NCBI RefSeq assembly: GCF_024521635.1
Contig: NW_026250457.1
Location: forward strand, 59,097-79,096
DNA: 20,000 bases
Source: Tricharina praecox
Lineage: Eukaryota
Direction: 5' to 3'
Shown: piece after piece, positions 1 through 20,000 of the stretch
Position numbering within the stretch: the first letter of the stretch is position 1
How the letters are laid out: every line of letters begins with the position of its first letter
The notes under the pieces: model-generated
Database searches by the model: none
Seen by the model: only the letters and a program-made list of their open reading frames with translations
What the model was told of the DNA's origin: nothing
Translations under genes and position numbers: made by a program

Positions 1-2
1 GG

Positions 3-545
3 CGAGTAGACGACTTCGAAGAATAACTTTCCAAGTCCTGTCGTATCGCCAACCGTCTGGCCACACTAGAAGCCCAACCCCAGGGCCACGCCGAGCGCGT
101 CCCGGAGCCAGCCATGTTCGATGGCACTCGATAGAAGCTCGAAGGGTTCTTTGCCCAGCTTTGACTCAAACTGTACTGCAACCATACCCGTTTCCCGTCC
201 CCAGCACTCAGAATGGCCTACACCTTCAACCGTCTCGAAGGCCGTGCCCAAGCCCAGATACTGCCGTACATCCAGAACAACGTGATCAGCTTGACCGACA
301 CCGATGCCATGGTCACCATCCTCGAAAACGCCTTCAGCGATCCCGACTCAGCGGCCACCGCACGCGCCGAACTCCACCGTCTCAAGCAAGGGAACAAGGA
401 CTTTACATCTTACTTTGCGCAGATTCAAAGGCTCGTGTCCAAGCTGAACTGGGACGAGCATGCCAAACTCGATGCACTACGCAAAGGAGTCTCCATCGAG
501 CTCCACCGACAACTGGTGGGCCGCACTCAGGGACTCACCTACAAT
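3..545 (+). pseudogene. gag: gag fragment of element A (Retrotrans_gag-like capsid region)
   Basis: Frame +3 reads ...PEPAMFDGTR*KLEGFFAQL*LKL...RFPSPALRMAYTFNRLEGRA...LENAFSDPD...ARAELHRLKQGNKDFTSYFAQIQRLVSKLNWDE...LRKGVSIEL, a typical fungal gypsy Gag. Stops at 24-26, 132-134 and 162-164. Ends abruptly near 545. Confidence 0.9.
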
Positions 546-3500
546 AGAAAAGGAGAACCTCACCATCTTTGCCACGACCCTGACGCAGATCAATGAAGTT
601 CTATCTGAAGAATAACACAGCTCAACCGCCCACATTTCCCCCGGATACCACAGATTTCTCCACGTCTTCTCTGAAAGGTTGGCGCAGAACCTACCACCCC
701 ATCGGCAATACGGCCACAAGATCCCACTGAAGAAAGGATTTGTGCCCCCTTACGGGCCCCTCTATTCGCTCTCAAAAACCGAGCTGGTCGCACTCAAGGA
801 ATGGCTTGACGACAATCTGAGTAAGGGATTCATCCTTGCGTCCTCATCACCAGCGGCATCACCGATCCTGTTTGTCAAAAAATCGGACGGCTCCTTGTGA
901 CTGTGTGTGGACTATAGAGACCTAAACGAAGGAACCATCAAGCACCGCTACCCACTTCCCCTGCCCCAGGAAACCTTGATGCGACTGTCCGGTGCAAAGT
1001 ATTTTACAACATTGGATATCCGCGGTGCTTACAACCTGGTACAAATGGCAGAAGGGGAGTAACGGAAAACGGCTTTCCGTACCCGCTACGGACTTTTCGA
1101 ATCATTGGTAAAGGCTTGCGGGCTAACCAACGCGCCAGCCGACTTTCAAGCCCTGATTAACGACGTTTTACGACCGTTTCTGGACGACTTCTGTACCGCC
1201 TTCCTAGATGACATCTTTATCTACAGCGCGTCACTGAAAGAACACTGAAAACAGGTCACCAAGGTGCTACGCGCCCTTTCATCGGCCGGACTGCACTTGA
1301 AACTGGAGAAATGCCACTTCCACCAGACAGAGGTCAAATACCTGGGCCTGATCATAACCACGGAGGGTATTAAGATAGATCCTGCCAAAGTCTCTTGCGT
1401 ACTCGAATGGGAAAAACCGACCACAGTAACGAATGTGCAGTGTTCCCTGGGCTTCGCGAACTTCTACCAGCGCTTTATCCAGGACTACTCCAAGGTGGTA
1501 TCTCCCCTGACGGCAATGACAAAAAAGGAAAATGGGAAGTACGTCCCCTTCAAATGGGGTATTGACCAACAGCAAGCCTTTGACACTCTCAAGACTGGCT
1601 TTACTACCGCCCCGATACTCCGACATTCCGACTACGACCGAGAAATAGTGGTGGAAACTGATGCCTCGGATTACGTACCGGCCGGTATCCTCTCCCAGTA
1701 CGACGCCGACGGAATCTTGCATCTGGTTGCCTTCTATTCAAAGAAACACTTCCCGGCGGAATGCAATTACGAAATCTACAACAAAGAATTGTTGGCAATT
1801 GTTCGAGCCTTTCAAGAATGGAGACCACACCTTGAAGGAGCCGCGCACCCGGCCCCAGTGCTGAGCGACCACAAGAACTTGGAATACTTCATGTCAGCCA
1901 AGTTGCTCAACCGCCGGCAAGCCCGATGGTCGGAATTCCTGTCCCGTTTCGACTTCAAAATCGTCTATAGACCTGGTAAAGCAGGAGGGAAACTGGATGC
2001 ATTGACAAGGAGGTCAGGAGACCTCCCTAAGGAGGGGGATGAAAGACTGCTGGCGAACCAACAAGCAATCCTCAAGCCCCAAAACCTGCTGGAAGAATTG
2101 AGATTGTCAGCGACCAATCCGTTGGAAGTACCCCGTCCCACTCTCTACCCTGATAACCGAAGCATATCAGGCAGATTCAGCGCCGAACAAGATCCTCCAA
2201 CTGCTCAGAAACGGAATACGCCAATCGAAGGACATCTCGCTCGTCGACTGCAGCGAAGTCAACGGACAATTACATTACCGAGATTGCTTCTACGTTCCTG
2301 AACACGACTCACTCAAACTTCGCCTGATCCAGGACCACCACGGCCCACCGGCTATGGGCCATCACGGAAGAGCTAAAACCTTGGGACTCCTGGCCGGGAA
2401 ATACTACTAGCCCCAGATGCGGAAGGACGTTGACCGATTCGTGGAAACTGCCACATTTGCAGACGAACGAAAGCAAGAACACACGCCCCCTACGGTGTGC
2501 TCAGCCCACTCCCAGTACCCGAGAAACCCTGGCAACATATCTCCGTCGAGTTCGTAACCGGACTCCCTCCCTCAAACGGATTCGATGCCATTTGCGTATT
2601 TGTGGACCGCCTCACCAAGCAACGACACCTGCTCCCTTGCAACACGACCATCACCTCTGAAGGATTCGCAGAACTATTCTGCGATCTGATCTTCAGATAC
2701 CACGGACTACCCGACACTATCGTATCGGACCGGGGCCTACAGTTTGCATCACGATTTTGAAAACATCTATGCTCTTGGCTCAAGATCGACGCACGGCTCT
2801 CCACGGCGTTCCACCCGCAGACGGACAGTCAAACAGAGAGAATGAATGCAGTAATGGAAAACACCTCCGAGTATACGTAAGCTACCTGCAGAATGACTGG
2901 GTCGACTGCCTATTCTTGGTAGAGTTTGCTGGCAACAACCAGGCATCTGACACCACCACCCTGTCCCCGTTCTTTGCTAACCTAGGCTACCACCCCCGTT
3001 GCGACTTCGAGCTTGACATCCGAACCGACAAGAAAGAAGAGCGAGAGGCACAGACAGCGGCAGAGCGACTCCAGCAGATCCATGACGTTGCCCGCAGTGA
3101 GATGCGCTACGTCCAAGCACGGCAGCAGGACAACACGGACCAGCACCGAACCCGCGCACCGGCCTTCCAGCCTGGAGATATGGTATGGGTGGACGGCCCA
3201 AACTGGCGAACGGAGCAACCAAGCCGAAAACTGGAAAACAAGCACCTCGGACGCTATCGGATTACCCGAGCCATCGGAAACCACGCATACAAACTGGACA
3301 TTCCGAACACCATCCAGAAGCACCGCACCTTCCCAGTATCCCTCCGCCACGCATCCGCTGACGACACCCTCCCCGGCCAGATCCTGCCGCCACCGTTACC
3401 AATAATTGTGAACGACCAAGAAGAATGGGAGGTGGAGGAAGTGCTCTACAGCAGAACGCTGAGGGGAAGACTCCAGTACCTAGTCAAGTGGAGGGGTTTC

Positions 3501-3551
3501 GCAGCACCGATGTGGGAACCTGAGGACAACCTTGTGGACGTACAGGCAGTG

Positions 3552-4241
3552 TGTGAGACTGGGACGGGTTTGTGTCGTCGGAGTCTATAGTAAAATCGAG
3601 GATAGAATAAAAGTCAGGGATTTCGATAATTCACAACGGAATAATCTTAAGGGTGTTTTGTTCGATGGTTTGTTCGGTGCGGTGATTGTAGTTTGTTCAG
3701 TTGCCAGCTCGGTTCGACTTATAGTCGTCCCGATCCTCAGCACGTGATTCCTCTAGAGTGCGGCCTAACCTAGCTCCGTTGCTTCCTTTGCATCGGAGTT
3801 CCGCGGCCTAGCCTTGAGTCGTCGTCAGCTCTCTTCGGATAGTCTTCTCGACTAGGCAGGTGGTAAACACCACGCGCCCAAGATAGATCGGAGTTTCCGA
3901 GCAATTATCTCCCTCATGCGCCGGCAGAGTTCTTCGCTCGAAGTTGTCTGCCCCCATCGGTCGATGTTCGATTCTCTCGTCATAACAGTTTTTTCCTGGA
4001 TCGGAGTTCCTACTGCGGGGCCCTATGATAGGAGATCTCAAAGTCCTCTGGACTGTTATCCCGATCTCCCGCATCTCCGATCACTGTCTAGACTCTGGAA
4101 TCCGTTTGCTCCCTCCTTCCTATCTTGTCTTTGATCGCTTCTAACTATCCTTTCGGCTCGCAACTCTATTCTAATCACCCGAACTATCTAATCACATCTG
4201 TTGCGACCGTCGTGTCCTCCGATACCTATCGGGGTGTCACA
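3552..4241. mobile_element. Solo LTR (690 bp) related to element B, with 5-bp TSD CAGTG
   Basis: Termini TGTGAGAC...GTGTCACA (7/8 inverted match). Flanked by direct repeat CAGTG (3547-3551 and 4242-4246). Removing it restores the chromodomain frame VDVQAV|EDFHQRYP. Its first ~110 bp align with 6494-6600. Confidence 0.93.
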
Positions 4242-8081: not shown

Positions 8082-9196
8082 GAAGAGATTCTTTCCCCAC
8101 CTTCGGAAGCCACCGATGACATTCTGCCATCCTGCCTGGACGGGCGAGCGCAGCCTGTATGTAGAGTACTCAGTAGGTAGCACGAGCCTGAGGCGGCATG
8201 CCCGGTCGTTTGAGCATCATTACCCGCTACATACCTAGGTAGAGTATGTAGGTATATGTTGCAACATCCGAGCTCCGAGCTCCGCCCTTCGCCTCAAAAG
8301 CTCAAGGCGGGTGACAATAACCCTACTGGGCACTCTTGCCCTGCCCCCGATGCAATGCTTGCCTCCTCCTCCTCCAACACCTCCTCCAGGTCTGGTGCAG
8401 CTTTCCTCCCCACATCCGTCGTTCCTAGAAACTCTAGCATTGCCTCGCTGCACCGCTCGTCGGCGACTTCGCGGAACAGAGTGTTTCTGTGGCCCCAGAT
8501 CTTGTGCTTTCTCGTCTGTCCGTGAACGATACCTTCCTTAAGATCCTGTCGTTCGATGTTAGGTAGATACTCCTGTTATTTGATCTTTTCTTCGCGAATG
8601 CGAAATCCAACTACAACCTACGAGAGTTAGGTTCGATCGCACAACGGGCTCAAATACCATCTCGTTCCAGCTACCGGGACTCGTAGCTTCAACTGTGTTA
8701 AAACCGCCTGTACAGTAGGATATTAACCACAACTTCCGAAAACGGCGGTCCACTTCTCAACCCGAATGTTTTACATGATGAACGAGAGAGAGAGATAGAG
8801 AAAGATCTTCGGTTTATTTCGCATGCAGCCTATTTAGACTATGGCGAACGATCGTACTCCTTTCCTGCCCACTCTGGCCGGTCGGGGGTGAAGACCCGTT
8901 ACCGACCAGTCCGATGCGGCGCCCCACTTCCCCTGCCCATCCGCCTCGGGCCGACACAAGCAATACATGATGAACGAACCAGCGAGTGCCTGGGATAGTC
9001 CACTTCTGGTTGAGTGAGAATGTGTAAACCTGTGGCCACGCTTTAGCTACTGTCAATGCGCCAGTAAATCCCCATCAGATTTTATGCCAGTCTATATGTT
9101 CGCAAGAACCGGATCTCAGCGTACTGCCTCCACCATCATGCGGCAAATTTGATTCGAAGATGTCCAATGCTGTGGTCGTCGCCGAAGACGGGAAGA

Positions 9197-9231
9197 AAAC
9201 GAGGAAACGAGGAAACGAGGAAACGAGGAAA
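9197..9231. repeat. Microsatellite (AAACGAGG)x4
   Basis: Four perfect 8-bp units. Confidence 0.9.
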
Positions 9232-9815
9232 TGCGCGAGGCGGTAGTTGATTGGAAGAAGAAGACTCGGCAGAATTGACGCGGAAGAGGATAATTAACGG
9301 AGCACAGGGACGCAGGATACATCACAGCAGTGTGACATTTATGGACTGCTATACTGAACATTGAAGCGCGTGAACTTCATTCACTCGCCACGGCGGATCC
9401 GCCGGCCAAAAAGCGCCTACCGTAGGTTAATGTGAGGAGGATAGCGGCAGTAATGGTGGAGAATTGGCTAAGATTCCTCGGAAGAGTCCACGTTAATCCG
9501 CGGGTGAATAAACCTTCTGCACCAAGTTCGCCAGTTTGTAAACGTGCTTTCGACGTTGTGTAAGTAGTCAGCTCGGGAAATATCTCTCTTCATCTGAGGA
9601 ATATACCTTTCCGTATGAACAAATACTGGATTTACATAGCATCCCCTCTCTCGTAAACGTAAATGATGTTGCGGAGCCGCCAAAAGCGCCTGCAGTTAGG
9701 TCATTTCCTCAGAACCCTAACGAAATACTCGATACTGCACCGAGTGATGGTGGCGGCCATGATTTCGCCGACGGTTTTTGGCTAGTTCTTTGGATATTCC
9801 AACCCCACGAACCCT

Positions 9816-9823
9816 TATAAATA
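9816..9823 (+). promoter_or_regulatory. TATA box, copy 1
   Basis: TATAAATA followed by a CT-rich tract typical of fungal transcription-start regions. Conserved in copy 2. Confidence 0.7.
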
Positions 9824-10037
9824 CCTCCGTCTTCCCCCACTCCTCTTCCCTTTCTTTCTTCGTGAATTCTCAAGACTTGCTCCTGATCCCAACGTTTACG
9901 TTCTGCTCAACCCTCTCTTGCACTTCACACTTTTGTTGCATCGCAACCACCCTTTTCTGCTCTTGCTCTCGCTCTTGCTCTGCTCTTGCTCCCTTTTCTT
10001 TCTACTCCCTCTTCCTCCTCCCTCTTCTTCCTCCCTT

Positions 10038-10730
10038 TACGACTACGGTCGTATATTTTTCGAAAGGTCGTCTAAGGTACATATCTCACGCTACTTTACT
10101 ACCCCACGGGGTTCTCCCATACCTGCAGAAAACGACTGACGAAACTACTACTAGGACTTCCTAGAGATCCTACGGGACTGTTAGATTACGACTACAGTCG
10201 GAAATCATTGAAGAGGTTGTCTACGGTACATATCTCTCTATACGTCACTACAGCATGGGGTTCTCCCTTGTTTGTGGAAACTGACTGACGAAACCACTAC
10301 TAGGACTTCCTACAGATCCTGCGGGACTGTTAGATTACGATTACGGTGGGTAATCTTTGCAGAGGTTGTCTACGGTACATACCTCCCAACACTTTACAAC
10401 ACCCGGGTGTTCTCTTATATCTACGGAATGTGACTGACTAAATCACAATCAGGACTTCCAGAGACGTACTACGGTAGTGTCCGATTTTACGACTACGGTC
10501 GGTAATTTCTTTTTCGGTCGTCTAAGGTGAATATCCCTAAAGTTATTCCATGGTTGCAAAAACCGACTGACCAAACCACCATCAAGACTTCAAAGTAGAC
10601 TTACTACGGTAGTGTCAGATAAGACTACGGTCGATATCTTTTTCTGAGATAGTTTACGGTACATATCGCCTTATACACTCTTTCCGTAGTGCGTGAAATA
10701 ACTGACTGTGCGCCATCAAGACACCTAGAT
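10038..10730 (+). other. Tandem array of five ~149-bp exon+intron modules with UNCG-type hairpins (putative spliced non-coding leader or ncRNA), copy 1
   Basis: Predicted introns 10077-10154, 10226-10303, 10375-10452, 10527-10586 and 10659-10720 (GTACAT/GTGAAT...ACTGAC...YAG; the last two end in AAG). Internal exons are 71-74 nt, ATG-free, and do not join into an open frame. Confidence 0.75.
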
Positions 10731-10785
10731 TTATTTTTACGGATTACTTCACAAGACCGAGTTTGTGCAAGTAAAGTTGTCAGAT

Positions 10786-11929
10786 ATGAACAACGTTCCA
10801 ATCAAGATTGTGGCGAAGGTGTGCGGCGGTGGTGTCGACGGCGGGTAACGGCCCCAACAGGATAGCCAACAAGTCGGTTTTCGAAGACTTGGACAACTCC
10901 GACTGTGAGATGAGAGACGGCGACGACGATGGCGAAAATTCCGACTCCGGGGATGGAGCTTCTTTCGTTGCTCCTCCTCTTGACTGTGACGATGAAGACA
11001 GTGACTCTGACTTCTACGACGAAGACAAGGACGACGACAAGAAGGCCGATCACAAGAAGGCCGATGACAAGAAAGGAGACGACCCTAAAGGCGGCGACGA
11101 TGGCGGCAAATCCTCCTCCGGCGATGGAGCTCATGCGATTCCTCCTCCTCCTGCGATTCCTCCTCCTAGCTGTGACGACGAAGACAGTGACGCCGAGTTC
11201 TACATGGAAGACGAAGACGTCGACAAGAAGGACGGAGAGGCAGGCGAACCTGCAGCGATTCGTGTTCTGCTGGAATGGCGGGAGGGTGGGAACGATGATG
11301 ACGATGATGACGATGACGACGATGAGAAAGACTCTCATGATGATGACCAGAGTGGGCTAAGTGTGAGTCCACTGGATGACGACGAACTAGAGTCCCTCGT
11401 GGCTTGTTTTGAGAAGCTTTACCTATCTCGCAAGAGAAGTGTGTCGGCTGCGGCTGTCGTTGGTCAACAGAGCAGTGCACTTCTTTGCCCTCGGGCCACC
11501 GGACCTGCCAAAGACACGGACGCAGACGGAATGGAGTCACTTGTGGCTCTCTTTGCGAACCTTTCGGTGTCTGATGAGAGAACCGACAAGGACGGGATGG
11601 AGTCACTTGTGACTCGCTTCAAGAAGCTGTCAGTGTCTGGCAAGAGAGCTCAGGATGCCGTGTTGGCTCCGGCTCCTCCCAAGGACACGGACGGGGTGGA
11701 GTCACTTGTGGGTCTGTTCGCGCACTGGTCGGTGTCTGACGGGACAACCGACAAGGACGGGATGGAGTCACTTGTGGCTCGCTTCAAGAAGCTGTCCGTG
11801 TCTCGCAAGAGACGGCAGGATAGTGTGTCGGCTCCGAGTCGTCGTGACGAAGTGGACTACGTTGGGCAGACGGTGAGGCAAGTGTCTTTGGTACTCACAT
11901 TTGATTGCCAGCGACACCATACATCTTAA
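10786..11929 (+). CDS. Orphan acidic, low-complexity protein with tandem NES-like repeats; frameshifted near 10845 (possible pseudogene, or starts at ATG 10910, 339 aa)
   Basis: Long open frame 10808-11929, D/E-rich, with repeats DGMESLVxxFxxLSVS. The ATG at 10786 matches the paralog's ATG at 15431 but stops at 10846-10848 because of a 1-nt indel. Confidence 0.55.
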
Positions 11930-11967
11930 TCCATCATGATTGGCGAACGGCGAGGATTTGTTGTCGC

Positions 11968-12600
11968 CAGGGCCTCTCTGCCTGACCACTGCGTTCGCTC
12001 CCAGGGCGCTGTACTCGATTCCCTCCCAGGTCTCTCTTCCTCTATACTGCATTCACTCCCAGGCCTCTCTACTGGATTCGCTCCAAGACCTCTCTACCGG
12101 ATTCGCTGCCAGGGACCTCTACTCGATTCGCTCCCAGGGCTCTCTTCCTCTATACTGCATTTACTCCTAGACCTCTCTACTGGATTCGCTCCAAGGCCTA
12201 TCTAATGGATTCGCTCCAAGGCCTCTCTGCAGGATTCCCTCCGAGGCCTCTCAACTGGATTCACTCCCATGCCTCTCTACTGGATTCCCTCCCAAAGGCC
12301 ACTCTATCTCCCCACTGGATTCGCTCCAACGCCTCTTTACTGGATTCGCTGCAAGGCCTCTGTTTGATTCGCTGCCATCAACTCTCTACTGGATTCGTTC
12401 CCATTCCTCTCTACTGGATTCACTCTCATGCCTCTCTACCGGATTCGCTCCCAATGCCTCTCTACTGCATTTGCTCCCAGGGCCTCTACTGCATTCGCTC
12501 CAAGGGCCGCTACTGCATTCGCTACCATGGCCTCTCTGTTGGACTGGCTGCCATGGCTCTGTACGGGATTCGCGGCCATTCCCTCTCTACTGGACTCACG
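11968..12600. repeat. Degenerate 25-bp minisatellite (~AGGCCTCTCTACTGGATTCGCTCCC), roughly 25 units
   Basis: Recurrent CTCTCTACTGGATTCGCT at a ~25-bp period. Confidence 0.9.
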
Positions 12601-13714
12601 ACGATTTTCCCACGCAAAATGGCAACCACTTTCGCGGCGAGAGAGAGACAAGGCGGCATAGCAATTCTCGTCAACAACACAGACATCAGACCAACAACAG
12701 CCTACAACACGCCCGCTAAATTCATGTCCGCCGCGGATGTCGCAGCTCCACGTTTTCAGCAGCAACATTTCAGCAGTTTGAAGGATCCGTGACGCACGAC
12801 AACAGTAAAGTCAGTTCTAAACAAAAGTAGGTTGGACACAAATTACTACCACCAACGGCGACGCAGTCACGGTTCACAGAGGAGAAGCGAGTGGACTACC
12901 GCGACTGGATTCATTCGGTATCCTCACATGAAAACACCACCGGGGACCCAATTAAAACCGCCTTTGGAACCATCAGTACGATGCCGAAACGAGATTCGGA
13001 GCCGGACTCCGACGCACCCCGCCCCTCCTACTGACTGAGTGACCAGTCGTACCACTGCGCCGCAGGAAGTGACCACGGCAGACAACGATTCCACCGACTG
13101 TACTGGATGGTGCTGTAGTAGAAGGATGGGTTCTGAGAAAGAGGAGGGTTGGCATGCAAGTGGAAAAGATTGTACAGTAACATCCGAGATCAATGCAGTG
13201 TTTGTTGTGTTAGTGAGAATTCAATTCAATTGATGTTTGACGAGGATTGGTACTGCAGAATGTAGTCGCCAAAGCAGTACCGTAACCGTACAGCCAGCAG
13301 TGGTGGTGGTGGTGGTGATGGTGATCTCGAGCCCGTAATACTACTTGCCGGTTTCGGGTTCAGCATGCCATTCTATCCTTGGGCCAGCCGACGTCGGCAA
13401 ACTTCTATGGCTGGGGAGTCTGGCCCAGGATGAGATATGCCGGAAAAATCGATCCATGGTCCGGCCAGTTGTGACATTCGACCCACCTATACAGGGGCCG
13501 GTCCATGTATACACGGGCCGGTCCATCTATTGATGCGCGGGCCCATCTGAAGAACAATATATCTGCCCAATGGCATAGAACATATATAGTACCCAGCCTG
13601 CTGGTGATCAGGAATTTCCCACACCAAATGAAAAACACAATCGTGGCAAGAGAGAGAGAAGAAGGTACGGTTCTTTGGTTACTTAATGCCATTTTCAGCG
13701 AGTCTGTACATGTC

Positions 13715-14105
13715 AATTTATCATGGTTAGCGAACGGCGAGGGTTCTTTGTTGCCAGGTCCTCATGACTGGTGGTATTCGCTGCCATGGCATCTCTGCCT
13801 CTCTACGGCATTCGCTCTCAGTGCTTTATCACTGCATTCGCTCCCAGAGCTCACCACTGCATTTACTCCCAGAGATGCATCACTAGTTCGCTCTCAGGGC
13901 TCTATACTAGACTTGCTACCAGGGCTCTATACTGGAATCGCTGTTAGGGCTTCATCACTGCATTTTCTCCCTGAACTCAGCCCTGCATTCGCTCCCAGGG
14001 CTCTGTACTGGAGTCGCTGCCATGACTGTGTACTAGATTCGCTGTCTGCCAGAGAGACTGTGCTGCATTTGCTATCGTGGCCTCAGTACGGGATTCGCTG
14101 TTGTG
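13715..14105. repeat. Second, more degenerate block of the 25-bp minisatellite with the same 5' flank
   Basis: ATCATGGTTAGCGAACGGCGAGG matches ATCATGATTGGCGAACGGCGAGG at ~11932. Followed by repeated CTGCATTCGCTCCCAGGGCTCT-like units. Confidence 0.8.
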
Positions 14106-14524
14106 GGTTCGATGATGGTGGTTACTTGACGGATGTCATTTGTGTTTTTAGTTGCCACGAAAAAAAAACTGATGTGTCGCGAAAAAAAACGTTTTTTTGG
14201 ACAAGGACTTAATCCAGACTTTTCTGTCGCCGCGACGAGATGCTAGTGATTTACGACAGGAACAAGCCTGGTGCGAGACTATTTTCATCTATCTAGAGGA
14301 ATATATCTTTCCGTGTGGGCAAATATCTGGAAGTACATCATGTAGCATACCCTCTCCCGTAAACGTACGTGATGTTGCGGAGCCGCCAAAAGCGCCTGTA
14401 GTTACGTCATTTCTTTGCAACCCTAACTCCTCAGCGGGATACTGCCACCGAGTGATGGTGGCGGCCGAAAGTTCGCCGACGGTTTTTGGCTAGTTTGTTT
14501 GGATATTCCAAACCTACCAAACAG

Positions 14525-14532
14525 TATAAATA
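14525..14532 (+). promoter_or_regulatory. TATA box, copy 2
   Basis: TATAAATA at the position homologous to 9816, followed by a CT-rich tract. Confidence 0.7.
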
Positions 14533-14802
14533 GCTCCGTCTTCCTCCACCCCTCTTCCCTTTCTTCCTTCGTGAATTCTCAAGACCTCCTGATCTCAACG
14601 TTTACGTTCTGCTCAACCCTCTCTTGCACTTCACACCTTTGTTGCATCGCAACCCCCCTTTCTGCTCTTGCTCTTACTCTACTCTTGCTCCCTTTTCTTC
14701 CTCCTGCTCCCTCTTCCTCTTCCCTTTTCCTCCTGCCTTCAAGTTTTCTTGTGCACAGCACAAGTCACGAAGAGCTTGCGACAGCAAGTCTCATTTCGAC
14801 TT

Positions 14803-15375
14803 CGGACTACGGTCCGTTGCGCTTTCTGACCACGGTTAGTTTTTTTTCTCGAAAGGTCGTCTAAGGTACATGTCTCCCTCCCCCATGCTTGCGGAAAACG
14901 ACTGACGAAACACTACTAGGACTTCCTATACAGATCCTACGGGACTGAGATTACGACTACGGTCGAGAATCTTTGAAAAGGTTGTCTACGGTACATATCT
15001 ACCTCGATTCTACTACACCCGGTGGGTCTCCCATATTTGCGGAACGTGACTGACCAAGCCAATCAGGACTTCCCGGAGACGTACTACGGTAGTGTCCGAT
15101 TTTACGACTACGGTCGGTAATTTCTTTTACGGTCGTCTAAGGTGAATATCTATATAGACTCTGCTACAACTGGGAGTTCTTCCATGATTGCCAAAGCGTA
15201 TTTACCAAACCACCATCAGGACTTCCTAGTAGACCTACTACGGTAGTGTCAGATAAGACTACGGTCGATATCTTTTTCTGAGGTAGTTTACGGTACATAT
15301 CCCCACATACACTCTACCACGCCTGGAGGTTCTTCCACAGTGCGGTACTGACCGTACCACCATCAGAACACCTAG
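14803..15375 (+). other. Tandem array of four exon+intron modules with UNCG-type hairpins, copy 2
   Basis: Predicted introns 14866-14919, 14991-15066, 15142-15219 (weak branch site) and 15293-15366, all GT...YAG. Internal exons are 71, 75 and 73 nt. Confidence 0.75.
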
Positions 15376-15430
15376 ATGTTTTTACGGATTACTTCACAAG
15401 ACCGAGTTTGTGATTGTAAAGTTTTCAGAG

Positions 15431-15940
15431 ATGGACAACGTTTCCAGAAAGATTTTGGGGAAGGTGCGCAGCGGCGGTGGCGGCGGTGGCAATGGCTCCG
15501 ACAAGATGGCCTACAAGTCGAAGATCGAAGACTTCGACAGCGAGATGGAAGACGGCGGTGACGGCGATAACGACAACTCCGACTCCGGGAATGGAGCTCC
15601 TTTTGTTGCTCCAGGTGAACGTGCAGCGCTTTGCGCTCTGCGGGACTGGCGGGAGGGCGGGGAGGGGGGGGGGGGTGGTGACGACTCCGACGACTCCGAC
15701 GACGCCGACGATGAGGACGGCTCTGACGATGAGGACGACGCCAACGATGAGGACGGCTCCGACGATGATGATGACCAAGGTGGAGTATGTGAGAGTCCAC
15801 CTGACGCGGACGAACTAGACTCCCTCGTGGCTCTTTTTGAGACGCTTTACGTGTCTCGCAAGACGACTCAGAGAATTGTGTCCGCTGCGGCTGTGGTCGA
15901 CCAGCAGAGCAGTGGACCTGCCAAAGAGGCCAGGATGTAA
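15431..15940 (+). CDS. Orphan acidic protein (169 aa), shorter paralog of the 10786-11929 ORF, with one NES-like motif
   Basis: MDNVSRKILGKVRSGGGG...DSDDADDEDGSDD...DELDSLVALFETLYVSRK...AAAVVDQQSSGPAKEARM*. Colinear with the copy 1 protein. Confidence 0.55.
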   Translation: MDNVSRKILGKVRSGGGGGGNGSDKMAYKSKIEDFDSEMEDGGDGDNDNSDSGNGAPFVAPGERAALCALRDWREGGEGGGGGDDSDDSDDADDEDGSDDEDDANDEDGSDDDDDQGGVCESPPDADELDSLVALFETLYVSRKTTQRIVSAAAVVDQQSSGPAKEARM

Positions 15941-16158
15941 TGTTGGTCCTGGGTCTCAGGGGCGAAGTGGATTATGAGGAGCTGGGCTAGGGCCCACCCC
16001 GGCCCAGAGGCCGGGAGTGGTGCTGGTAGCGGCGGACGAAGAGGATGGTTATACAACCTCCTCAGGTCGCCCGACAGCAGTCCGGTTCTGGCGAACTTCG
16101 TCCGGTGGTGGTCGCCACCGGCGACCGGGTGATGTCACGCCGTACAGCTTAGACGAAG

Positions 16159-16622
16159 TTGCCTGCGACGGACTTGATCGAGCACGAGATACTGATATTT
16201 CAACGATGCAAGCTAGTACGAGCCAAAGACCCCTTATACAACAAAGTCGAATGGCAGAGACGGAACCTCCCAAAGATGCTGGACGGGTGTATCATGACCT
16301 GGGATCAGCCACCTGGGAGCGCTCTATATACACGTTCGTCTTGTCCAAGGCAGAATACTCTTACGTAGGAGATACTCAGATTCTTCAGCTTCTGAGACGA
16401 GCACGGTCCGCGCCGCGTCATCAGGTGGGCCTTGGGCTCGTGAGTCTTCGAGAGCCTTCCAGACGTCTAATGTTGACACACGGTACGGCGGTGGCATCAG
16501 GTGCTAGCAGTACTGAAGTTGCTGTCAATGTGCAGGGTATGGCAGCGATGGGAGAAAGAGCGATTCAAGATGCGATCATGACAATTCCAAGGGCGTTGAC
16601 CAATGAAAGGAATGAGGAATGA
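16159..16622 (+). pseudogene. Possible decayed Harbinger accessory ORF (Myb/SANT-like partner), convergent with the transposase
   Basis: Position is tail-to-tail with the transposase relic. Fragments EILIFQRCKLVRAKDPLYNKVEW and AAMGERAIQDAIMTIPRALTNERNEE* are only loosely suggestive. Confidence 0.25.
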
Positions 16623-16639
16623 AAGGAATTTATGATATC

Positions 16640-17100
16640 CTACATGTAGATTTAGACACTCATCCAATGACGGTGGAGGACAATCAAACTGAATGTTGAT
16701 TTGATTTCCTCACTGAATGCATGACTGAATATTGTAAAAACGTACTGTGATATACCATAATATGTTCCCACCTGAGAAGATCCCGCTTTCAAGTCTCCTT
16801 TTTACCCATTGAAACCCCAATTTTCCATCGTGACTCGTCTTTCCAAAACCATGCCCTACACTGATATGCAGAGAAGAAATTTGAGCGTTGATCTCTTTTT
16901 CAAGTTCACTCAACTCTCGTCCAACATGTGCATTGCATTGAATGGACTGGGAGTACCATGCAACATCGCATACGCAGGATCGCAATAGATGTGTTGTAGG
17001 CCACACGGCAGATTTTCCCAGATGAGCTTATCAGCCGCAAATTTTTCTGTCATAGTTGTGCATGCGGAGTGTGTCGATGACGACCGCAGCAATACTGGAA
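16640..17100 (-). mobile_element. PIF/Harbinger-like (DDE_Tnp_4) transposase relic, C-terminal half
   Basis: Across one frameshift it reads HIYCDPAYAMLHGTPSPF / ELSELEKEINAQISSLHISVGHGFGK...YITVRFYNIQSCIQ*GNQINIQFDCPPPSLDECL. This resembles the fungal pattern YGDPAY..PF..E..FN..MS..RISVEHGFG...N..C..GNQ...F.C.PP.L.EYL. Confidence 0.8.
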
Positions 17101-17640
17101 GCGTTGGGCGTCCGAAATGCTACTATAATTGTCGCAGAAATGCTGCCAGACCACAGAAGTGCTAGCAGAGAAAGCATTAGCACGTGATGATGTACTAGAG
17201 GCTGTAGAATGTATCAAAATCTGGTAGAGGGATGGGATGATTGTGGCGACTCAGGCGGATGTGAAGGAAACCGGGGACATGTTGGCCGCGCGATACAGGA
17301 GGATCTGGTGTAGATTACATGATTGTAAAGATCACAATATCCAACGTGTATACTTTCGTAGCCCGACTCATCCCGACCGACCAGACCATACCCAAAGTTG
17401 GTCGGGACTGGTCTATGTAGAACACTGGTCAGAAGCATCAGCAGCATCAGCACGCATCATGGCCTTCAACCCCCGGAGACCGTTCCCCTGTCACTCTCCG
17501 AATTTCGGACGGCTAACTAGCCATCATATTGTTGTCAAACTTTACTCGCCCGGAGATCTCGGGACGAGTTAAGGTTTGGCGGTGGAAGAGTCTCGACGAC
17601 CATGATGGACCATCGACGACTATATGGTTACGCGGCGGCG

Positions 17641-17726
17641 AACTCTGACGAGCGGGCCCGGCAAATTCTGATGAGCGGTCCCGGTGAACTCTGATGAGTG
17701 GGTCCGGCAAACTCTGATGAGCGGCC
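17641..17726. repeat. 23-bp tandem repeat x3.7 (AACTCTGATGAGCGGGCCCGGCA)
   Basis: Units start at 17641, 17664, 17687 and 17710. Confidence 0.9.
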
Positions 17727-18300: not shown

Positions 18301-19572
18301 TGAGGGTAACGAGATCATGATCACGGCTCCCGACAAACCATATGCCACCGACAACGGGATTGCTTTACGCCTGGGATAGTGTTGTCTGCTGTTACGAGAT
18401 GTGGTATGATAAGATCAGATGGGATAAGATATCAGAATAGGAGCAGGCGCAGATGACTTCTGGAGACGCACAACGCTAGCGGCATTCGGGTTAGGCTTGG
18501 TGGAGCAGAGGAGTGCGGGGCGCGGAGGCAGAGGCGGCTTGGCGTCATCGGTGATCGCCCAAGAGGAGACCTGATTGAAACCTGGTGGGACCTGATGCAG
18601 TCGCTCAACGTTGAATTTTTTCTACTTTTCTACATTCTCTCGTCCTGTCGCCGGTCGGTCCTCATCCTCATCTTCTTCTTTATCTTCATTATCACCATCA
18701 TCATCGACCGAAAGCTTTAGTCTAATTGATCACGTTTTTGTTCCTCACCCGTTTCTGGGTCCCTCAGCAGCCCACGAGGTGGCGCTCTGAGCGGTAGTCA
18801 GAATAGCAACCTTCTCATCGTACTCCTCACATTTACTGCTTGCCCGGCTACGAGATACGACAAACGCCTCCTTCCAGGCGGTTCTCCGTGCCAGCTTCTT
18901 CGATTTGTCAGCCGTACAATCTTCCGCGCCGGACCCGGCCGGGGTTGCAGAATTGCCGCTACCCACGTAATCCCCCCACATGGCCCGTAGCGGCACCACC
19001 ACACGGCGCGCTGCAATTGAGATACACGATAGGGCTAGTGCGAGATGGCTTCATTCGCTATTAACGCGGCCGAATTCAATTCTAGCCACGATTTCGCGAG
19101 GGATCATTCGTCAATGCCTCTCCAGGAAGACACGCGTGAGGAGAAATGGCGAAGACACAGAAAATAGCGAAGGCGGAGTGTCACCGTCGACTGGATATAT
19201 GCTGATCAAGAAAGAAGAAGAGAGCCTGCGGGTCCTAGTTTAACTTCACCTGCCTCCCAACTTGGCCGACCCCACCATCTTGCAGACTACAGTAACCACA
19301 TTCGTTCCCTCTCGCTGACAGCTCCTCCATCCCGCCGGCACAACGGAAATAGAGGTCAACTATCCATGTAGCAAATTTCGCAATGCGGGAAACTTTTACT
19401 TACGGCCGGTAGCTGAGGGTGATGAGGTGGGGGAGTCTGGGTTGCAAAGAAGTTACCGATCGTTCCGTCTGCATATTTATACCGTCTCTTCTCCACAGTA
19501 GATATCGACACTAAATAATCCTTTCAGCACATCACAGCACCGTTCGTCGCGATCTAAAATCCCACCAGCTCG

Positions 19573-19580
19573 TATAATAA
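19573..19580 (+). promoter_or_regulatory. TATA-like element of the hydrolase gene
   Basis: TATAATAA lies 45 bp upstream of an ATG in AAACAATG context. Confidence 0.4.
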
Positions 19581-19617
19581 TACCTTTCACCGCAATCCAA
19601 CTTCCGCATCTAAAACA

Positions 19618-20000
19618 ATGTCGATTCTCAGCAGCACCTTCGCTTGCCAGACCCATACCTACCAAAGCGCGCCCACAACGGCCCTCGACGTTTACAAACC
19701 TGCCAACCACTGTCCTGCCTCGCGCCACAAGACTCTCATCCTATTCCACGGTGGCGGGCTCACCACCGGGAGTCGCGACGTGTTCATCCCCGTCGGTATC
19801 GCCACCCAGCTGCTGAACCGGGGCTGGATTGTCATCTCAGCGGACTATTCGCTTCTCCCGCAGGCGAGCGGACTATCGTTGCTCCGCAACCTCGCCAACA
19901 TCGAGACGTGGATCACCGAGAACGCGGCGAAGGAGGGAATCGACACGACCAACGTTGCCGTCGGCGGCGAGAGCGCGGGAGGGTACATGAGTATCCTTGC
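19618..20000 (+). CDS. Alpha/beta hydrolase, HSL/Abhydrolase_3 esterase family (5' part; runs off the window)
   Basis: Open frame MSILSSTF...LDVYKP...LILFHGGGLTTGSR...RGWIVISADYSLLPQ...IDTTNVAVGGESAGGYMSIL contains the HGGG oxyanion motif and the GxSAGG nucleophile elbow. Missing from the ORF track because no stop falls in the window. Confidence 0.93.
   Translation, partial: MSILSSTFACQTHTYQSAPTTALDVYKPANHCPASRHKTLILFHGGGLTTGSRDVFIPVGIATQLLNRGWIVISADYSLLPQASGLSLLRNLANIETWITENAAKEGIDTTNVAVGGESAGGYMSIL

Follow-up and report, generated by a model that had tools for sequence, protein, structure and literature searches.

[quoted passage not shown] It is a single, experimentally proven element in the coding region of an animal mRNA and is tied to kinesin-dependent transport. 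A second point of comparison is given by sister stwintrons and introner-like elements, which one study presents as similar short fungal introns with inverted repeats of 45-55 nt inside the intron and with unrelated gene positions (PMC8469720). A preliminary description of a 20,000-nucleotide stretch of Tricharina praecox DNA (the window, to which all positions below refer) had proposed a hairpin of the first type, assembled by joining predicted exons, and had singled it out as the best candidate for an undescribed system. Since the oskar SOLE is already known as a splicing-assembled stem-loop (PMC10484445), a hairpin of this kind is not undescribed as a kind. The flagged site is putatively the last of the ordinary short spliceosomal introns of one gene copy (four in that copy, B, and five in its neighbor, A), and these introns would sit in the long 5′ leader of a tandemly duplicated, lineage-specific gene.

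Two gene copies with a modular leader

The window consists of fungal nuclear DNA in which one gene unit occurs twice, about 4.7 kb apart, as tandem paralogues (copies A and B). Both copies lie on the + strand and share the same order of elements, with a TATAAATA box followed by a CT-rich block, a long leader and the main ATG. In copy A, the upstream region covers 9816..10785, with the TATAAATA box at 9816-9823 and the ATG at 10786; in copy B, it covers 14525..15430, with the TATAAATA box at 14525-14532 and the ATG at 15431. The coding region of copy A (10786..11926, + strand) is broken, as the ATG frame meets a stop after 20 codons and the long open reading frame (ORF; 10790-11926) lies in a different frame, to be explained by a 1-nt frameshift or else by an error in the sequence. 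The reading frame is intact in copy B. Its first coding exon (15431..15937, + strand) has 169 codons and begins MDNVSRK, and an ORF further downstream (15978-16619) is similar to the C-terminal part of a paralogous protein, P0002; because of this resemblance, an intron probably lies between the first coding exon and this ORF.

A word-indexed search of 5.8 billion proteins returned two relatives, P0001 and P0002, both named in the source as hypothetical proteins of Tricharina praecox. P0001 (93% identical) evidently represents the gene model deposited for copy A, and P0002 (50% identical) is a paralogue from another contig, whose N terminus, MDNV..., agrees with the ATGs used here. A full HMMER pass with P0002 as the query over 1.84 billion representatives yielded nothing beyond these two proteins, Pfam families in the products of copies A and B numbered 0, and residues 37-82 of P0001, which derive from mini-exons of the leader, gave 0 matches as a query among shorter proteins. 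As P0001 and P0002 are the sole relatives in the protein searches, the gene family is, judged by sequence, a lineage-restricted orphan. In a scan of metagenome contigs with a pattern that matches five modules in the window, 16 loci were retrieved, all 16 of them unrelated tandem repeats. Among sequencing runs over 9000-17500, two (X1 and X2) are low-depth DNA contigs that cover intergenic DNA as well, and the sole joint in them (9889 to 14596) falls within a 41-nt stretch common to both paralogues; two others (X3 and X4) contribute 31-mers alone, on the low-complexity stretch 15647-15681, and represent unrelated metatranscriptome words.

Each leader is a tandem array of modules of ~150 nt, in which a mini-exon (~71 nt; range, 71-75) is followed by a predicted intron of 54-78 nt. 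Tandem Repeats Finder reports this periodicity in both copies (149 nt at 10037-10506 and 151 nt at 14951-15268). Nine leader introns are predicted, all on the + strand. The five of copy A are A-I1 (10077..10154; 78 nt; GTACAT..CTGAC..TAG), A-I2 (10226..10303; 78 nt; donor within a CTACG/GT motif, the slash marking the exon border), A-I3 (10375..10452; 78 nt), A-I4 (10527..10586; 60 nt; acceptor moved by 1 nt, to CAAG) and A-I5 (10659..10720; 62 nt; acceptor likewise moved by 1 nt). The four of copy B are B-I1 (14866..14919; 54 nt), B-I2 (14991..15066; 76 nt), B-I3 (15142..15219; 78 nt; with the degenerate branch box TTTAC) and B-I4 (15293..15366; 74 nt), the last being the intron at the flagged junction. 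Mini-exons begin with the head GACTTCCT and end with the tail AGGTYGTC-TA[A/C]G, head and tail being imperfectly complementary (6/8). The internal exons comprise three old types with 63-75% mutual identity, along with recent A/B pairs at 85-93%, and each of the nine junctions derives from one module by tandem or segmental duplication. The window contains 17 copies of the 7-mer CTACGGT for an expectation of 1.7, and 14 of these are inside the two leaders, all on the + strand. The 7-mer is common to hairpins within the mini-exons and to three donors, where it straddles the border as CTACG/GT.

The predicted introns carry canonical signals. All nine begin with GT[AG][AC]AT, and all nine have the GT and AG of U2-type introns (YAG in seven; AAG in A-I4 and A-I5). 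The branch box is CTGAC in eight of the nine, the exception being the TTTAC of B-I3, and the chosen AG, which is the first usable one, follows the branch A by 13-16 nt throughout. Joining the exons removes nearly every ATG from the leaders: 0 are left in 579 nt in copy A and 1 in 589 nt in copy B, for a composition expectation of ~8 each, and the introns carry 3 in copy A (356 nt) and 3 in copy B (282 nt). Between the two copies, 259 of 287 exon columns are identical (90%) compared to 202 of 316 intron columns (64%), a difference with a Fisher p of 8e-15 when gap columns are counted and of 3e-4 when only substitutions are. The mini-exons are also conserved better than the first 60 nt of the coding sequence, which are 77% identical between A and B. 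Coding mini-exons were rejected as a candidate, since each frame of the spliced leaders contains 3-9 stops and the spliced leader of copy A lacks an AUG. Beside the intron signals, the AUG-poor joined leaders and the conservation of exons over introns support the borders without the hairpin, and on these grounds we hold with high but not full confidence that the predicted introns are real. The intron/exon structure of the preliminary description is very plausible, and the tail AGGTYGTC is complementary to the next head GACTTCCT. Its strings are exact across all three joins it had quoted (10065-10076 to 10155-10162, 10214-10225 to 10304-10311 and 15281-15292 to 15367-15373), and each predicted intron does adjoin the 3′ edge of the 4-nt loop.

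Predicted hairpins at junctions and within mini-exons

Junctions were folded locally, using the last 14 nt of the upstream exon and the first 12 nt of the next. At the predicted junctions, the described hairpin is present in seven of nine cases, including all four of copy B, with energies of -4.2 to -8.4 kcal/mol. In prediction, therefore, seven of the nine junctions have the SOLE-like property that the arms lie in separate exons and are joined by splicing. The two others are in copy A: the 1-nt acceptor shift of A-I4 abolishes the junction hairpin and leaves another fold (-3.7 kcal/mol), and the A-I5 junction has no fold (0.0). At the flagged junction, the 5′ arm and loop, AGGT-A-GTT-[TACG], form the end of mini-exon B-E4 (15281..15292, + strand), and the last leader exon opens with the 3′ arm, AAC-ACCT (15367..15373, + strand); the local energy is -4.2 kcal/mol, and the probability (P) of the closing pair in the fold of the whole leader is 0.08. 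It is the weakest of the hairpins present, with a U-A closing pair where the others have C-G. The special stability of UNCG loops requires a C-G closing pair, and the flagged hairpin, with its UACG loop on a U-A pair, falls outside the C(UNCG)G class. UACG loops closed by C-G are found at three of the nine junctions (A-I2, A-I3 and B-I2), and the loop is UAAG at four. The best predicted junction of copy B is B-J2, where the 5′ arm and loop, AGGTTGTC-TACG (14979..14990, + strand), pair with 15067-15074 at -6.7 kcal/mol and P of 0.91. In copy A, the 5′ arm and loop of A-J2 (10214..10225, + strand) and their partner at 10304-10311 reach -8.4 kcal/mol, with P of 0.99 in the spliced form; unspliced, the same arm is predicted to pair with the intron start at P of 0.87.

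Similar hairpins are predicted inside the mini-exons. In B-E2 (14931..14972, + strand), two UACG-capped hairpins follow each other, H1 at 14931-14947 and H2 at 14948-14972, with a z-score of -2.88 (1 of 200 shuffles folds as well). Equivalents of both occur in every internal mini-exon, H1 being made of TCC/GGA or TAC/GUA with an outer stem and H2 of (C)GAC/GUC(G) with an outer stem. The design is the same as that of the junction hairpin, a 3-4-bp stem closed on TACG. H1 also carries a compensatory change, being A-U in four units and C-G in three, a result that 14 of 500 shuffles reach. When the spliced leaders were scanned for the candidate loops TACG, TGCG, TACA and TAAG, 11 of 22 candidates of copy A and 11 of 20 of copy B had at least three Watson-Crick flanking pairs; the background per position is 0.040 for the leaders and 0.018 for the window.

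Folding relative to shuffles distinguishes exons from introns. Mini-exons have z-scores of -0.08 to -2.88 (mean, -1.15), whereas the nine introns range from +0.84 to -0.89 with a mean of about 0, and the spliced leaders (z = -1.37 and -2.41) likewise differ from the unspliced ones (z = -0.06 and -0.53). A structured intron was discarded as a candidate on the intron z-scores of about 0. A known RNA family, an intronic snoRNA and a tRNA were also discarded: 0 Rfam covariance models reached the gathering score in the window, a single match in 9800-10800 was at chance level (E = 0.93), and tRNAs in the window numbered 0. Taken together, the conservation of the exons, the predicted folding of the mini-exons and spliced leaders and the UACG-capped stems suggest that an RNA-level role of the mature leader is likely. 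They would also allow the junction stem to be the third hairpin of an array, although the evidence is thin, coming from a young family confined to one species.

Origin of the junction complementarity

Three nulls define the level of stability expected by chance, namely virtual joins among the leader exons, shuffles of the arms and random joins in the window. Across the three, a fold of -6.5 kcal/mol or lower appears in 5.4-8.6% of random joins and one of -8.4 kcal/mol or lower in 1.1-2.6%; the value of the flagged junction, -4.2 kcal/mol, is reached in 22-25%. Because the nine junctions were copied from one module, their repetition is inheritance and amounts to about one observation, and the junction hairpin is not confirmed above chance. 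For the same reason, the hairpin cannot serve as independent support for the splice sites, a use that had been made of it: all of its copies descend from one module. We consider it somewhat probable that the junction hairpin is a by-product of the complementarity between module heads and tails, inherited with the module and of a stability in the chance range. As the modules are tandem copies, each tail would be set beside the following head on splicing, and a small stem-loop would arise at most junctions. Such a hairpin would be neither a sensor nor a counter of splicing.

The fate of the hairpins in copy A bears on this reading. Two junction hairpins have been lost there without compensation, through a C-to-A change in the head of A-E5, a G-to-A change in its tail and two 1-nt acceptor shifts, and the cores of the exons concerned are 97-98% identical to those of copy B. 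The loss is hardly informative should copy A be a decaying pseudogene; should copy A be functional, the loss speaks against constraint on these stems.

A second reading, which we regard as rather unlikely, is that the junction stem-loop is real, SOLE-like and assembled by splicing. Each module would then encode three hairpins capped by UACG or UAAG, the third of them interrupted by the intron and completed only when the exons are ligated. The mature leader would thereby gain a periodic hairpin array that could be read by a protein or by the scanning ribosome and that would stay incomplete without full splicing. The presence of the hairpin at seven of nine junctions and at four of four in copy B, its loop and stem style, which is that of H1 and H2, and the conservation of exons far above introns are all consistent with this, as is the precedent of the oskar SOLE (PMC10484445; PMC4509934). 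Against it, the tandem copies supply a single ancestral observation with a chance of 5-9%, the UACG loop with C-G closing occurs at just three of nine junctions, with UAAG at four, and two hairpins of copy A are gone without compensation. Folding of the whole spliced leaders cuts both ways. In junction order, the closing pair has an ensemble P of 0.38, 0.99, 0.46, 0.00 and 0.00 in copy A and of 0.13, 0.91, 0.55 and 0.08 in copy B, where the last value is that of the flagged junction. The values of 0.91-0.99 at two junctions speak for a real stem-loop and those of 0.00-0.13 at five of nine against it.

Covariation offers this second reading little further help. The nine genomic junction regions were aligned over the six proposed pairs, giving 54 cells, in 85% of which the pair is formed. 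The change of GTC/GAC to GTT/AAC on opposite sides of the intron, reported as covariation, is present and is compensatory (C-G to U-A at B-I4). It is a single event, occupying 1 of the 54 cells and seen within Tricharina praecox paralogues only, and 128 of 500 shuffles score at least as high, so that covariation is no higher than in shuffles; the score is also unchanged when the partner is slid by -1. Transitions account for 42 of the 74 A/B differences in the region, and a paired C-to-T and G-to-A change is therefore no rare coincidence. A change neighboring the double change at B-I4 converts an internal loop to a pair, and the tail position that varies among the three old module types is one without a pairing partner. 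On the favorable side stand this one compensatory change in a junction stem and the one in H1 (14 of 500 shuffles). A weakly selected real structure would fit the four of four hairpins of copy B, the shared loop design, the compensatory change at B-I4 and the change beside it, the unpaired variable tail position and the z-scores of the spliced leaders relative to the unspliced ones.

The two readings differ in what they would mean. If the stems are real and functional, they would constitute a second natural type of splicing-assembled RNA structure after the oskar SOLE, and one repeated within one leader. They could then offer a handle on how cells tell fully from partly spliced mRNAs, in a fungus that is simple for reporter tests. 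If the complementarity is merely inherited, as we think likelier, nothing new in kind is involved, and the locus would represent a tidy multi-intron leader that grew by tandem duplication of exon plus intron and in which the mini-exons are more constrained than the start of the protein-coding region.

With inherited complementarity as the preferred origin of the junction stems, the leader may still act at the RNA level. Each gene has three AUGs in its leader introns, from which we infer that complete splicing would be necessary for access to the main AUG, scanning ribosomes reaching it only from the fully spliced mRNA. The hairpin-rich mini-exons may act in the mature leader, for example by tuning scanning or stability or by binding a protein. 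We speculate further, and consider it unlikely to hold in full, that this is the modular leader of a young, species-restricted family in which splicing of four to five introns both builds a regular hairpin array and strips upstream AUGs, thereby coupling the completeness of splicing to translation or to RNP assembly.

It is also conceivable, but very unlikely in our view, that the junction hairpin never forms because the true junctions differ from those predicted, for example through use of a second AG (GACTTCCTACAG/ATCC) or through other processing of the leader. A second AG does follow every acceptor, 8-14 nt downstream of it and 23-28 nt from the branch A, behind a pyrimidine-rich run, and its use would turn GACTTCCT into the end of the pyrimidine tract of the intron. 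Between A and B, the heads (8-14 nt) match in 40/48 columns and the exon cores in 219/239, a lower conservation of the heads that is not significant (p = 0.105). When mapped on the window, the P0001 model joins 10225 to 10316 and uses the AG at 10165-10166, which are distal AGs at two introns; it also uses one predicted donor (10225/10226) and one predicted acceptor (10452/10453). However, this model begins ahead of the TATA box, runs on through the leader, places two ...G/GT donors within mini-exons and skips the frameshift. It is an ORF-driven model and thus weak evidence on the positions of the junctions. The proximal AG, moreover, is the first usable one, at 13-16 nt from the branch A in all nine introns, and the first AG is as a rule the one chosen as acceptor. 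The third paralogue, P0002, has its initial Met at the position equivalent to 10786 and 15431, which also speaks against other junctions.

The complementarity might instead work before splicing, through a UACG hairpin that hides the donor, through head-tail closure that defines short exons or through pairing across the intron; we regard this as scarcely probable. The best case for it lies at the donors of A-I2 and A-I3 (TACG/GT), where a C(UACG)G-capped hairpin is predicted in the unspliced RNA with P of 0.87 and 0.82 and local energies of -6.2 and -8.2 kcal/mol. Its loop is closed by the first G of the intron, and GUACAU and the pyrimidines that follow pair with the exon tail. The motif CTACGGT, common to the intra-exonic hairpins and three donors, and the head-tail pairing of isolated mini-exons point the same way: in the minimum free energy fold of six of seven isolated internal mini-exons, the head pairs with the tail of the same exon and closes a three-way fold around the two internal hairpins. 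Elsewhere, however, the donor hairpin is weak or absent (P of 0.10 at B-I2; 0 at the remaining six), the same-exon head-tail pairing falls to P of 0.06 or less in full-length folds, whether spliced or unspliced, and the unspliced leaders show no excess of structure over shuffles. These folds also bear on two earlier statements. The exclusion of the capped hairpin from unspliced RNA is only partly right; it agrees with the P of 0 at six donors and conflicts with the values predicted at A-I2 and A-I3 (and, weakly, at B-I2), and the suggestion that exon-exon pairing draws the splice sites together across the intron finds no backing, as this pairing has a predicted P of 0.02 or less at nine of nine introns. 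Introns of 54-78 nt are usual in filamentous fungi and need no such bridging. Finally, the repeated CGG-containing sites could be read at the DNA level as sites for a zinc-cluster factor, but such a reading leaves the conservation along the exon/intron borders unexplained.

Comparison with known systems

Narrow literature searches turned up neither a leader of tandem mini-exons and introns nor exon junctions with UACG hairpins, which is weak evidence of absence. The locus is in part like four known systems. Like the oskar SOLE, the predicted junction hairpin draws the two sides of its stem-loop from two exons and would exist only after splicing. Where the SOLE is single and proven, the structure here is a 20-nt predicted candidate with a 3+3-bp stem and a stability in the chance range, repeated at seven of nine leader junctions of a fungal orphan gene in one species. 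Its likeness to C(UNCG)G tetraloops is equally partial: UACG with C-G closing is found at three of nine junctions and in most of the intra-exonic hairpins, whereas four of nine junctions have a UAAG loop and the flagged one is closed by U-A.

As with proliferating introns, the locus presents a family of similar short fungal introns with associated complementary sequences. In contrast to them, the arms here are in the flanking exons and the copies are in tandem within two paralogues. The copies were duplicated together with their exons in two leaders and the introns have z-scores of +0.84 to -0.89, which separates them from introner-like elements. A further likeness is to the ordinary 5′-UTR introns of filamentous ascomycetes, with which the predicted introns share the arrangement GT..CTRAC..YAG, a length of 54-78 nt, a branch-to-AG distance of 13-16 nt and a leader that is AUG-poor after their removal. 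The leader departs from such introns in its four to five consecutive tandem copies of exon plus intron and in mini-exons that are conserved above the start of the coding sequence.

Coding regions of the two gene copies

In copy A, the first of the tandem paralogues of one orphan gene, the frame that begins at the ATG (10786) stays open for 20 codons before it meets a stop, and the long open reading frame lies in a different frame (10786-10860). Comparison with copy B and with P0002, a paralogue on another contig of the same species, points to one surplus base within a short run of G as the putative cause of the frame break. The break could mark copy A as a pseudogene or represent an assembly error; none of the aligned DNA contigs extends over this site. 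Further along copy A, a 165-nt coding repeat (11518-11836, forward strand; 1.9 copies) encodes repeated protein segments of the form '...DGMESLVxxFxxLSVS...', a motif that also recurs in P0002. In copy B (ATG at 15431), the first coding open reading frame ends at 15937 and a second, at 15978-16619, is similar to the C-terminal half of P0002 (RPGVVL..DEEDGYTT..). The intervening stretch, 15937-15978, probably holds either a short intron in the coding region or a second disruption.

Repeats and neighboring genes

Two arrays of a 25-nt tandem repeat with consensus CCTCTCTACTGGATTCGCTCCCAGG are situated between copies A and B on the forward strand, the first with ~21 copies (11981-12594) and the second with ~10 (13799-14056). 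The last coding exon of P0001, the deposited protein model of copy A, falls within the first array (12063-12167). A 23-nt repeat (17636-17724, forward strand; 3.9 copies) has the unit CGGCAAACTCTGATGAGCGGGCC, inside which CTGATGAG is present; Rfam gave no match here at gathering score.

The window opens with a degenerate Ty3/gypsy-type retroelement on the forward strand (1-3600). Stops and frame changes break it into separate open reading frame segments, with matches to Retrotrans_gag at 165-593, to RT/RNase H at 1249-2298 and to a Tf2-type integrase SH3 plus chromodomain at 2661-3587. At the other end lies the start of a forward-strand alpha/beta-hydrolase gene (19558-20000; BD-FAE/Abhydrolase_3, E = 7e-13), which continues past the window.

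The H1 hairpin read as DNA

H1 is one of two intra-exonic UACG-capped hairpins in each mini-exon, the ~71-nt exons of the modular 5' leaders. In mini-exons A-E4 of copy A (10472-10483) and B-E3 of copy B (15087-15098), its forward-strand DNA sequence is CGG-N6-CCG. A reading of the conserved mini-exons at the DNA level is possible, with CGG-N6-CCG as candidate zinc-cluster factor sites; some sites bound by zinc-cluster transcription factors have this form.
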